NCBI RefSeq assembly: GCF_029227855.1
Contig: NZ_CP074356.1
Direction: 5' to 3' (one strand)
DNA from: Escherichia coli
GTDB lineage: Bacteria; Pseudomonadota; Gammaproteobacteria; Enterobacterales; Enterobacteriaceae
DNA length: 64,000 nt
Positions within the stretch are counted from its first letter, which is position 1. Each line of letters begins with the position of its first letter. The position numbers and the translations under genes are program-made. The notes beneath the pieces were generated by a model, which was not told the DNA's origin, did not search any database, and saw nothing but the letters and a program-made list of their open reading frames with translations. Of the stretch, positions 59,298-60,800 are shown piece by piece.

Positions 59298-60323
59298 TTA
59301 AAATAGCAATTGAGTCAAATAGCCCATCAAGATAGCCATACCTAATATAACCGTCAGGAATGCAGCTATCATCGGCATTCTGAACATTGATTTAAGTAAT
59401 ATCACTTCCGTCAGGCTTGCGCCGGCACTGCCGATGATTAATGCCATTAATGCTCCCAGACCCATTCCTTTTGTCATCAGAACAGATGCCAGAGGGATAA
59501 CTGCCTCAGCCCGGATATACAGCGGAATACCGACAACGGCGCTTAATGGGATGGCGAAGGGATTATCTGCTCCTGCATGAGCGGCAATCCACGCTGAGGG
59601 AATAAAGCCATAAATAAAAGAGCCTATTAATACCCCTAACAAAAGATATGGCAGTACATCTTTAAACTGTTGCAACGCATCTTTGGTGGCTAGTTTTATG
59701 GGATTAATACTTGCCACTGCTTTGGTATTGCAACAGTTAACGACGGGTTTCTCAATGGCTTTAGCCGTTGGACTACAGCAACTCACTTCTATTGGCGTAT
59801 ATGTCGTCCCCGGCAAAGTTTTTGCCGACGCTTTGGCTGGAGCACAACAATTTGCTGATGAGCTTTTACTGGCAATGATATGACGTTCAAACCCCAGAGA
59901 ATCCAGGATAATACTGGCAAGAACGGAGACGCCGGTGGCGATAATCGCGTACAACAAGGTGACTTTCCAACCAAAGGTCACCCACATTAGTCCGACGATA
60001 ATGGGATTAAGTAATGGTGAAACAAATAAAAAAGTGAGAGTCGGACCAAACCCGGCTTTCGCTGACAACAATCCACGTAACATGGGTATTGTCGAGCAAC
60101 TACAGAACGGGGTAACGGCTCCCAACAGAGCAGCCAGGAGATAGCCTCTCCCTTTTCTGGCCCCCATCATCTGCTGGATTTTATGGTCTGGCACCTTTTG
60201 TCTTATCAGGCTGACACCGGCACTAATCACTATAAACAGCAACGAAAGCTCGACGGCGAGAAACACAAACATCTCTGCGGCATCTTGCAGCATCGCAAGC
60301 CAACTACTCATACGTAACCTCAT
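59298..60323 (-). CDS. Putative metal(loid) permease (DUF318/ArsP-like family) with a Cys-rich loop
   Basis: 341-aa polytopic membrane ORF with a TPFCSCS motif in an N-terminal TM segment and a central loop with CC pairs (ANCCAP, VSCCSP, VNCCNT). It is divergent from an ArsR-family regulator; the start codon is uncertain. Confidence 0.6.
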   Translation of the reverse strand: MRLRMSSWLAMLQDAAEMFVFLAVELSLLFIVISAGVSLIRQKVPDHKIQQMMGARKGRGYLLAALLGAVTPFCSCSTIPMLRGLLSAKAGFGPTLTFLFVSPLLNPIIVGLMWVTFGWKVTLLYAIIATGVSVLASIILDSLGFERHIIASKSSSANCCAPAKASAKTLPGTTYTPIEVSCCSPTAKAIEKPVVNCCNTKAVASINPIKLATKDALQQFKDVLPYLLLGVLIGSFIYGFIPSAWIAAHAGADNPFAIPLSAVVGIPLYIRAEAVIPLASVLMTKGMGLGALMALIIGSAGASLTEVILLKSMFRMPMIAAFLTVILGMAILMGYLTQLLF

Positions 60324-60418
60324 TGGATAAATCTATATTTCCAGAATAATCGAAATGAAATTCAGATCAAGATATTTCTGGTATTATCGAAATATCAACC
60401 AGACAAAGGGGGTGTCAT

Positions 60419-60715
60419 ATGCAGTTGGAAGAAGTTGCTAAAGCGCTGAAAGAGCTAGGTCACCCGACCCGTTTGTTCATATTCAAACACCTGGTCAAAG
60501 CGGGGGAGCAAGGTTTGCCGGTCGGTGAGTTGCAAAAGCAGCTTGGGATACCCGGCTCTACACTCAGTCACCATATTTCAGCACTGGTATCGGTAGGGCT
60601 GGTTAAACAAAACCGTGAGAGTCGGACGCTGATGTGTGTTTCGCAATACGCAATGCTGGAAGCGATAATTGAATTCTTACGCGAGGAGTGCTGCGTAAAT
60701 AGCAAAATTGCCTGA
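60419..60715 (+). CDS. ArsR/SmtB-family transcriptional regulator
   Basis: 98-aa ORF with winged-HTH signature (HPTRLFIFKHL...VGELQKQLGIPGSTLSHHISALVSVGLV) and C-terminal Cys pair (EECCV). Strong RBS AGGGGG 6 nt upstream of the ATG. Confidence 0.7.
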   Translation: MQLEEVAKALKELGHPTRLFIFKHLVKAGEQGLPVGELQKQLGIPGSTLSHHISALVSVGLVKQNRESRTLMCVSQYAMLEAIIEFLREECCVNSKIA

Positions 60716-60800
60716 TGCGCTACGCGCTACAGATTTCATGCCATGCACGGTTTTGTAGGTCGGATAAGACGCGTTAGCGTCGCATCCGACATAAACAAAG
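60710..60800. repeat. REP elements between the ArsR-family regulator gene and arsC
   Basis: GCCTGATGCGCTACGCG... and GTAGGTCGGATAAGACGCGTTAGCGTCGCATCCGAC palindromic units. Confidence 0.55.

Follow-up and report, generated by a model that had tools for sequence, protein, structure and literature searches.

The nearest described counterpart of the gene pair treated here is the SpArsR-ArsP locus of Shewanella putrefaciens 200 (Sput200_1227/Sput200_1226), in which arsP is divergent to the regulator gene. As cited in two later papers (PMC11868830 and PMC12124457), Chen, Nadar and Rosen (2017) found by experiment that SpArsR is selective for MAs(III). AfArsR from Acidithiobacillus ferrooxidans (PDB 6J05) is a type-2 repressor that senses inorganic As(III). 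The ArsP family of transporters has been described as having two four-helix halves with a hydrophilic insert between them, and ArsA and ArsP have been reported to co-evolve (Castillo and Saier 2010, PMC2963123). YraQ is the only protein of the Pfam family PF03773 in K-12. CjArsP from Campylobacter jejuni belongs to the same family; Chen et al. (2015) reportedly measured its efflux of MAs(III) and Rox(III).

Organization of the locus

The window is a 64-kb stretch of Escherichia coli DNA. It contains a divergent pair of genes, a permease gene on the minus strand and an ArsR/SmtB regulator gene on the plus strand, which is flanked by the yhiS pseudogene on one side and by arsC on the other. The original prediction placed a Cys-rich permease and an ArsR-family regulator at 59298-60800, divergent, free of frameshifts and beside arsRBC; the ORF list agrees, and both ORFs were found intact at these coordinates. 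The arsP-like permease gene occupies 59298..60311 on the minus strand and encodes 337 aa. The regulator gene, here termed arsR2, occupies 60419..60715 on the plus strand and encodes a 98-aa ArsR/SmtB protein, predicted from NCBIfam, Pfam and alignments with AfArsR and SpArsR to be a repressor of the SpArsR type. The canonical arsR-arsB-arsC operon is located at 60838..62972 on the minus strand, as indicated by the ORFs and the PGAP names. It consists of arsC (60838-61263; NCBIfam ArsC match above the cutoff), arsB (61276-62565; ORF list and PGAP name), and arsR (62619-62972; NCBIfam ArsR match above the cutoff and a type-1 CVCDLC site). The arrangement had been presented as a possible extension of the ars locus, but its novelty was overrated; it had already been named "ArsRBCRP" in a 2017 paper.

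The stop codons of arsR2 and arsC converge on a spacer with a REP-like hairpin (60716..60837). The spacer has a folding energy of −44.1 kcal/mol (z = −2.8), and a 38-nt stretch of it is also found elsewhere in E. coli chromosomes. The hairpin is probably a bidirectional terminator or stabiliser. An Rfam scan detected no RNA family within or beside the arsR2-arsP pair.

Cysteine sites of the regulator

The regulator was expected to be a member of the ArsR/SmtB family. It scored 61.9 bits against the NCBIfam ArsR/SmtB model NF033788, above the cutoff of 55, and matched the Pfam families HTH_20 (E = 2e-14) and HTH_5 (E = 1e-6). Its only cysteines are Cys73, Cys91 and Cys92. The vicinal pair Cys91-Cys92 (codons at 60689..60694, plus strand) is a predicted two-coordinate site for trivalent organoarsenicals, based on the alignment to AfArsR and SpArsR, and it is invariant across 58 regulator homologues. 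The protein had been described as ending in EECCV. The CC pair is real, but the actual C-terminus is ...EECCVNSKIA, and the remaining ~6-7 residues after the pair (VNSKIA) contain no cysteine. The copies from the plasmid, Citrobacter, Aeromonas and Salmonella likewise have no cysteine after the pair. Cys73 (codon at 60635..60637, plus strand) is a conserved third cysteine, which is invariant in the adjacent homologous regulators examined.

The best PDB match of the regulator is AfArsR (E = 5e-10, ungapped). Cys95 and Cys96 of AfArsR correspond to Cys91 and Cys92, whereas its third ligand, Cys102, has no equivalent in the window regulator. The SpArsR sequence was taken from the Sp-ars-gBlock of a published biosensor construct (PMC12124457) and ends ...QDQCCSGQ. 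SpArsR has a 10-residue N-terminal extension relative to the window regulator; its Cys101 and Cys102 align with Cys91 and Cys92, and its Cys83 aligns with Cys73. Both proteins have a vicinal CC pair near the C-terminus and lack the third cysteine of the AfArsR type. The protein P0274, which corresponds to SpArsR at the N-terminus (with one difference, K14E) and the C-terminus, the two stretches translated, is 57% identical to the window regulator over 92 ungapped residues (E = 9e-41). The window regulator and SpArsR fall into one orthologous group and have the same two-cysteine site. In ~24 of the 58 homologous regulators, mostly from Vibrio, an extra cysteine is located 3-7 residues past the CC pair, as in AfArsR, which implies As(III) induction of the same permease subfamily in some hosts.

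Assignment of the regulator to the R773-type (type 1) ArsR proteins was rejected because no cysteine precedes residue 73, and hence there is no CXCXXC site. The neighbouring canonical ArsR does carry the type-1 site (ELCVCDLC). The residues of the alpha3N and alpha5 metal sites are also absent from the window regulator.

Predicted operators and promoters in the intergenic region

An inverted-repeat operator had been anticipated in 60324-60418, and two ATTTC-N10-GAAAT palindromes were found there. They are the only two copies of this motif in the 64-kb window, where 0.18 would be expected by chance, and both are in the 95-bp intergenic region. Predicted operator site 1 (60337..60356), ATTTCCAGAATAATCGAAAT, is a 5-N10-5 inverted repeat in a conserved block. 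Predicted operator site 2 (60371..60396), GATATTTCTGGTATTATCGAAATATC, is a perfect 8-N10-8 inverted repeat and is likewise conserved. Site 2 is equal in 21 of 22 bases to GATATTTCTGGTATTATCGAAT of the SpArsR-controlled arsP promoter of S. putrefaciens 200, and the promoters of both the Shewanella and E. coli pairs carry sites of the ATTTC-N10-GAAAT type. The Shewanella spacer is 221 bp, consistent with the published "222 bp upstream of arsP", compared with 95-107 bp in the E. coli pair.

The operator block is kept in the E. coli, plasmid, Citrobacter, Aeromonas and Salmonella copies, and its flanks vary. Of 50 divergent pairs from other species, 40 carry the motif; the count is 58 sites, compared with 3 sites in 649 kb of flanks. 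A predicted extended −10 element for the regulator gene, TGGTATTAT (60379-60387, plus strand), is overlapped by operator site 2. A promoter scan of the region gave 4 matches, compared with 3.2 expected from shuffled sequence; therefore, the promoter assignments are made from position and conservation only. The two genes are divergent, and the E. coli and Shewanella promoters share a conserved operator motif through which the regulator may control the adjacent arsP gene.

Structure and cysteine motifs of the permease

The permease had been read as a protein of 341 aa. The longest ORF, which opens at the ATG at 60323, has this length, but the true product is likely to have 337 aa. The likely start codon is the ATG at 60311, four codons further on, with a GAGG Shine-Dalgarno sequence 8 nt upstream; PGAP, which names the product "permease", uses the same start, and most homologues have 337 aa. 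The expected PF03773-type match was obtained over the full length of the Pfam family ArsP_1 (PF03773), with residues 13-338 aligned to model positions 3-293 of 294 (E = 4e-53). Two efflux families were also considered and rejected: the SO_0444 Cu/Zn efflux family (NF033936) scored 107.6 bits against a curated cutoff of 300, and the SaoE family (NF040736) scored 85.9 bits against a curated cutoff of 325.

The TPFCSCS motif (residues 67-73; 60093..60113, minus strand) contains Cys70 and Cys72 and is located between helices 55-66 and 71-83. Residues 67-70 are non-helical in the AF2 secondary structure, and Cys70 and Cys72 are proposed to form a thiol site for the substrate. The motif singled out in the original prediction is indeed present, but it is no distinguishing mark. 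It is nearly invariant in PF03773 family alignments and is carried by ~3/4 of the 50%-identity cluster representatives, down to ~31% identity. It is typical of PF03773 proteins in general and therefore does not single out the window permease. A literature search on TPFCSCS and ArsP Cys65/Cys67 yielded nothing relevant.

CjArsP has the same TPFCSCS cysteine pair as the window permease but differs from it in being a short form of ~315 aa encoded in an arsP-arsR-arsC-acr3 operon. Among ten short family representatives, cluster names identified only a Helicobacter relative. Its identity to the window permease is 35%, and it is found outside any ars operon; its Cys65 and Cys67 have the cysteine numbering of CjArsP. 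YraQ has the same overall layout and is 24% identical; however, CTCC replaces CSCS, the Cys-rich loop is missing, and no ArsR regulator is encoded next to it. The Shewanella ArsP shares 53% identity with the window permease, and its loop likewise contains three CC dyads.

The central hydrophilic loop of the window permease (residues 139-203; 59703..59897, minus strand) is predicted to be cytoplasmic and disordered. The three CC dyads that had been noted in it are Cys155/156, Cys178/179 and Cys193/194, and all eight cysteines of the protein fall in either the CxC motif or these dyads. Seven Lys and Arg residues are found in this loop, compared with none in the 237-252 loop. The loop is variable in length and evolves fast, yet the CC dyads are retained. 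Tandem Repeats Finder detected no repeats in the DNA of the loop region; therefore, the dyads did not arise from a recent tandem duplication.

The AF2 model of the permease (pLDDT 87) consists of two helix bundles (residues 3-138 and 204-336) with the disordered loop (residues 150-203, pLDDT ~50) between them, and the family motifs are placed at helix breaks. This layout agrees with the description by Castillo and Saier (PMC2963123). The modeled fold resembles those of carriers of the ion-transporter superfamily, including ArsB; the ArsB/DASS fold is that of this superfamily. A sequence search for solved PF03773 structures found no relative.

Distribution, neighbours and selection

A survey across E. 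coli genomes had been suggested. The pair is present in 2225 of 5426 complete genomes (41%) and is missing from K-12, in which window positions 59034-60645 are replaced by 99 unrelated bases and only relic fragments are left. A paralogous cluster was found on 647 plasmids, which are mostly conjugative. Its regulator is 94% identical in protein sequence, the DNA is ~83% identical, and the operators are the same; however, the permease loop differs from that of the window copy in length and sequence. On the plasmids, the genes after the regulator gene are arsH, a SigZ-like sigma factor gene, arsD and arsA, whereas the chromosomal pair lies beside arsRBC. E. coli and Salmonella frequently carry the plasmid copy, and among the records listed, several are from poultry or livestock.

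The Citrobacter copy neighbours arsRDABC, and the Salmonella copy neighbours arsRDABC-arsH. The island of the Shewanella pair differs in that it contains a low-molecular-weight-phosphatase-type arsC, a second arsR, thioredoxin, gapdh and arsJ, as well as a second ArsP (30% identical). Of 80 homologous loci sampled at species level, only 6 had a dedicated ars gene within 8 kb; therefore, the neighbourhood outside enterics lends little support to an arsenic role. The only recurrent neighbour of the homologous permeases is the regulator (61 of the 80 loci). Some relatives are found in arsD-arsA-arsP operons, which hint at As(III) transport.

Both the regulator and the permease core are under purifying selection. 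Three E. coli strains share the same regulator protein although their genes differ by 2-13 synonymous changes. The dN/dS of the regulator is 0-0.02, and the membrane core of the permease has a dN/dS of ~0.03 compared with the plasmid copy.

Proposed function of the arsR2-arsP pair

It is likely that arsR2-arsP is a self-contained cassette for the sensing and export of trivalent arsenicals, most plausibly methylarsenite and related aryl-As(III) compounds and not inorganic arsenite. The original prediction had proposed a metal(loid) or organoarsenical efflux module. The organoarsenical option is the best supported, judging from the orthology with SpArsR, the two-cysteine site, and the ars neighbours in enterics.

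We infer what induces the cassette, what it exports, what the loop does and how transport proceeds as follows. ArsR2 would be a dimeric winged-helix repressor that binds to the two ATTTC-N10-GAAAT palindromes overlapping the divergent promoters and represses both arsP and itself. R-As(III), for which two sulfur ligands are sufficient, would bridge Cys91 and Cys92, where the dimerisation helix ends, and ArsR2 would then leave the DNA. ArsP would be a small secondary transporter with two inverted four-helix halves. The CC dyads of the loop probably capture the arsenical first on the cytoplasmic side; it would then be bound at Cys70 and Cys72 in the helix break and released outside. The adjacent arsRBC operon, with its type-1 ArsR and CVC site, would handle inorganic arsenic, and the locus would therefore have two sensing channels.

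An extension of this mechanism is possible but doubtful. The loop may be a built-in ArsD-like chaperone that feeds Cys70 and Cys72 of a minimal elevator-type carrier with the ArsB/DASS fold, the rapid gain and loss of CC dyads may tune capture capacity, and ~40% of E. coli may be intrinsically protected against methylarsenite produced by gut anaerobes or the host. Such a protection trait would be invisible in K-12-based work.

The pair could instead be a general exporter of As(III) and Sb(III) that backs up ArsB, with a regulator that senses arsenite via Cys91, Cys92 and Cys73 of the partner subunit. The invariance of Cys73 in the homologous regulators fits this scheme, since in a dimer this residue might supply the third ligand of a three-coordinate As(III) site, and so do the AfArsR-like third C-terminal cysteine of many Vibrio homologues, the existence of arsD-arsA-arsP operons, and the reported co-evolution of ArsA and ArsP (PMC2963123). 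However, ArsB is already encoded at the locus, and we regard a general exporter as rather unlikely.

Efflux of a soft metal (Cu, Zn, Cd or similar), with the Cys-rich loop as a metal-binding domain and the CC pair as a metal site, is very improbable. SO_0444 is the best NCBIfam match of the permease (E = 7e-31), the loop is rich in thiols, and most homologous pairs are outside ars islands. However, the SO_0444 score is far under its cutoff, and the regulator, which has neither alpha3N nor alpha5 metal-site residues, aligns best with arsenic-type ArsRs. In addition, the Shewanella orthologue is arsenic-specific by experiment, according to the papers that cite that work, and the enterobacterial copies are set among ars genes.

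Export of reactive sulfur species or a thiol-reactive electrophile, sensed through oxidation or bridging of the CC pair as in BigR, YgaV and SqrR, is highly doubtful. Among the PDB matches of the regulator, YgaV ranks second and BigR third, the NCBIfam model of BigR matches at E = 9e-10, and in most marine bacteria the cassette is found on its own. However, a BigR/YgaV-type sensor was rejected because the score of 38.5 bits is well under the cutoff of 155 and the N-terminal partner cysteine of the BigR type is absent; moreover, no sulfur-oxidation genes recur as neighbours. That the pair is a decaying, functionless remnant heading for a K-12-type loss is scarcely credible: 59% of complete genomes lack it, K-12 retains only fragments, and the adjoining yhiS is a pseudogene, but both ORFs are intact, the operators are conserved, and the synonymous differences among strains with an identical regulator and the low dN/dS of the permease core oppose decay.

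Implications

The pair reveals no new principle, and it was overlooked because K-12, in which arsenic work is usually done, lost it. As a part native to E. coli, it could be used in methylarsenite biosensors. If arsR2-arsP does act on organic trivalent arsenicals, many commensal and pathogenic E. coli have two adjoining arsenic sensing channels, in which a type-1 ArsR serves inorganic arsenite and a two-cysteine ArsR with its exporter serves methylated and aromatic trivalent arsenicals. This may be relevant to gut arsenic metabolism, to selection by roxarsone-type feed additives, and to co-selection on conjugative plasmids.

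Organization of the locus

Two intact, divergently transcribed genes, arsR2 and arsP, were found in the window, as the original prediction had claimed. Their placement between slp and arsC, beside arsRBC, also held: one flank carries a frameshifted yhiS homologue (about 57602-58717, minus strand), followed by slp and dctR, and the other carries arsC, arsB and arsR. The longest permease ORF (59298-60323, minus strand) has the predicted length of 341 aa, but the gene is likely shorter. A second ATG at 60311 is preceded, at a distance of 8 nt, by a GAGG Shine-Dalgarno sequence, PGAP starts the permease there in an identical genome, and the majority of homologues have 337 aa; therefore, the gene was taken as 59298-60311 (337 aa). 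The regulator gene arsR2 (60419-60715, plus strand) encodes 98 aa, as predicted. The stop codons of the converging arsR2 and arsC genes are separated by a REP-like element (60716-60837) that includes a strong hairpin (GTCGGATAAGACGCGTTAGCGTCGCATCCGAC), and a 38-nt piece of this spacer is found again elsewhere in E. coli chromosomes.

A 281-aa ORF (57872-58717) is part of the yhiS homologue, in which PGAP marks a frameshift in the identical genome; it matched no NCBIfam family. The yhiS gene of K-12 is a pseudogene interrupted by IS5. Two Rfam AgrB matches (63123-63206 and 63354-63437, minus strand) lie between arsR and dinQ, positions that in K-12 are those of the antisense RNAs AgrA and AgrB of the DinQ toxin locus.

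The permease

The permease matches Pfam ArsP_1 (PF03773) over its full length (E = 4e-53), the family originally expected. The nearest NCBIfam model is the SO_0444 Cu/Zn efflux family, yet the score is 107.6 bits against a cutoff of 300, and the SaoE family reaches 85.9 bits against 325. Because both scores are far under the curated cutoffs, the permease belongs to neither family. The TPFCSCS motif highlighted in the original prediction is present, but it occurs in about three-quarters of the representatives of 50%-identity clusters, reaching down to ~31% identity, and on this distribution it is a hallmark of the whole PF03773 family. All eight cysteines are located in the CxC motif or in the three CC dyads, which lie in the central loop as described.

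An AlphaFold2 model built from 96 input sequences (mean pLDDT 87.4, pTM 0.84) has its helices in two halves (residues 3-138 and 204-336), and residues 150-203 form a disordered loop. In the model, the family motifs coincide with helix breaks: TPFC between helices 55-66 and 71-83, SPLLNP between 88-100 and 103-113, PLYIR between 253-264 and 268-280, and GSAGASLTE between 285-297 and 300-306. The model suggests a compact carrier, whose substrate site would lie at the hairpin tips and helix breaks. Lys and Arg residues are concentrated in loops 40-54, 139-203 and 307-311, with none in 237-252; therefore, the positive-inside rule puts the Cys-rich loop in the cytoplasm.

The regulator and its putative operator

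The regulator scores above the NCBIfam cutoff for ArsR/SmtB metalloregulators (61.9 vs 55). It also hits Pfam HTH_20 and HTH_5, in agreement with its predicted family. Its best solved relative is AfArsR, the As(III) repressor of Acidithiobacillus ferrooxidans (PDB 6J05, E = 5e-10). In an ungapped alignment (...FLREECCVNS vs ...YLTENCCHGT), Cys91 and Cys92 fall on Cys95 and Cys96 of AfArsR, which together with Cys102 ligate As(III) (PMC11868830, PMC13236881). SpArsR, the MAs(III)-selective repressor of Shewanella putrefaciens 200, has no third cysteine and takes methylarsenite, not arsenite, as its inducing signal (PMC11868830, PMC13236881). The EECCV sequence is present, but it is not the end of the protein as first read; the true C-terminus is CCVNSKIA, and the regulator therefore has the two-cysteine pattern. 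This pattern is shared by the copies from the plasmid, Citrobacter, Aeromonas and Salmonella. Cys73 (Cys83 in SpArsR) and the CC pair are kept in all 58 homologous regulators examined, and about 24 of them have an extra cysteine 3-7 residues past the pair, as in AfArsR.

The 95-bp arsP/arsR2 intergenic region contains a 37-bp direct repeat with one ATTTC-N10-GAAAT inverted repeat per copy, so that a match to the expected inverted-repeat operator was found twice (site 1, 60337-60356; site 2, 60371-60396). Site 2 is a perfect 8-N10-8 palindrome. These are the only two occurrences in the 64-kb window, with 0.18 expected by chance. In an alignment of intergenic regions from the E. coli chromosome and plasmid, Citrobacter, Aeromonas and Salmonella, both palindromes are nearly invariant and the neighbouring bases are variable. 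In other species, 40 of 50 divergent adjacent pairs have at least one exact copy in the spacer; these 50 spacers hold 58 sites, compared with 3 in 649 kb of flanking DNA. A putative extended -10 element of the regulator gene (TGGTATTAT) overlaps site 2, and on the minus strand weak promoter matches for arsP overlap sites 1 and 2; we infer these promoter assignments from sequence.

The ArsR of Noviherbaspirillum denitrificans, also published as MAs(III)-selective, has a terminal CC pair and no later cysteine, and its construct promoter holds ACATTTCCAGTATTTTGAAATATC, which resembles the window operator (PMC12124457 supplement, Nd-ars-gBlock).

Relationship to the Shewanella pair

In S. putrefaciens 200, arsR is Sput200_1227 and arsP is Sput200_1226, and the SpArsR-controlled promoter was defined as "222 bp upstream of arsP" (PMC12124457). 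The arsR part of the construct in the supplement of that paper translates to MNIADMNVADMNVENAAKVLKELGHP..., with the C-terminal end ...DYELLQGLVHFLQDQCCSGQ. In these N- and C-terminal stretches it equals P0274, a Shewanella regulator of 105 aa with cysteines Cys83, Cys101 and Cys102, save one N-terminal residue. Across 92 residues aligned without gaps, the window regulator and P0274 share 57% identity, and GATATTTCTGGTATTATCGAAT in the SpArsR-controlled promoter matches 21 of 22 bases of site 2. On the Shewanella contig (L093), the P0274 gene is divergent to an ArsP_1 permease across a 221-bp spacer; this permease is 53% identical to that of the window, and both have the three loop CC dyads. 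The regulator gene is followed by an arsC of the low-molecular-weight-phosphatase type, a further arsR, a second ArsP_1, a thioredoxin, GAPDH and an ArsJ-type MFS transporter. This second ArsP_1 has no Cys-rich loop and shares only 30% identity with the window permease. The identities, layout and CC dyads therefore place the window pair and the tested Shewanella pair in the same orthologous group. Methylarsenite selectivity is predicted for the E. coli regulator, on the basis of the shared cysteine pattern and the orthology with SpArsR, whose Cys83 is the counterpart of Cys73. A eukaryotic-type glutathione synthetase gene (L093 770-2197) adjoins the arsP divergent to SpArsR.

Distribution, loss and selection

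Of 5426 complete E. coli genomes, 2225 contain at least 80% of window 59100-60840, and in these the annotation of the two products never goes beyond "permease" and "ArsR/SmtB family transcription factor". The pair is missing from K-12, as anticipated. There, window 59034-60645 is replaced by 99 unrelated bases, and the relics between arsC and yhiS are a 76-bp stretch (86% identity) covering the last 70 bp of the regulator gene (60646-60715) and a 17-bp permease-gene fragment (K-12 locus L012 3664-4291 vs window 59034-60715). Therefore, this standard laboratory strain lost the cassette by deletion.

E. fergusonii, Salmonella, Citrobacter, Enterobacter, Proteus and Aeromonas all have close homologues. 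The Aeromonas pair stands alone, and the Salmonella order is arsRDABC-arsH-arsR2, divergent to arsP. In Citrobacter (loci L003-L005), the pair follows arsRDABC within a lambdoid prophage; arsenic resistance is phage cargo there. The whole arsRDABC-arsR2-arsP island lies between the replication genes and the dinI/rusA/lysis genes, and the isolated Citrobacter phage Chris1 (ON041214.1) has the permease, annotated "YraQ family". A paralogous pair (~83% DNA identity) is carried by 647 plasmids, most of them conjugative, and adjoins arsH, a SigZ-like sigma factor, arsD and arsA.

The regulator protein does not differ among three E. coli strains with 2-13 synonymous differences, and comparison with the plasmid and Salmonella copies gives it a dN/dS of 0.01-0.02. 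The value for the permease core is ~0.03; therefore, both genes are under maintaining selection. The permease loop evolves much faster and has indels, with the CC dyads still kept.

The wider family and the arsenic reading

A scan of one genome per species gave 80 loci (46-75% identity), most of which belong to marine Gammaproteobacteria. No neighbouring gene other than the regulator recurs; it is present at 61 of the 80 loci, and at only 6 do dedicated ars genes lie within 8 kb. The cassette is therefore an autonomous two-gene unit. A few scan loci (L015, L035, L043 and L050) have arsD-arsA-arsP operons, which fit the older proposal that ArsA is able to energise ArsP and hint that the subfamily might move As(III) too. 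At these loci acr3 is close by and arsB is absent.

At about 12 loci, an ECF sigma factor of the SigZ family, cysteine-rich at its C-terminus (...CCTLQLDKRGNLLDCEKKSNGCDHC), is encoded directly 3' of the arsR2-type regulator; the Vibrio examples are L018, L025, L026, L030, L031, L037, L040, L044, L046 and L053. The plasmid cluster encodes a related factor, named "sigL" there (plasmid L002, 9715-10260). The factor may be a thiol-based second regulator, and we found no description in the literature of its role.

In the literature we found neither a study that tested the chromosomal pair of E. coli experimentally nor a published statement tying its regulator to the SpArsR type. Castillo and Saier described the long form of ArsP, which contains a hydrophilic insert (PMC2963123), and work on gut metagenomes of Bangladeshi children reported "ArsRBCRP" and "ArsRDABCRP" operons in the E. 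coli strains ST2747 and FHI98 (PMC5718612, 2017). The observation of the pair is confirmed, and its interpretation as an additional metal(loid) or organoarsenical efflux module is supported. Some versions of the cassette are probably tuned to As(III). The arrangement had already been named in 2017, and the pair of the window would join the known ArsP/SpArsR-type systems.
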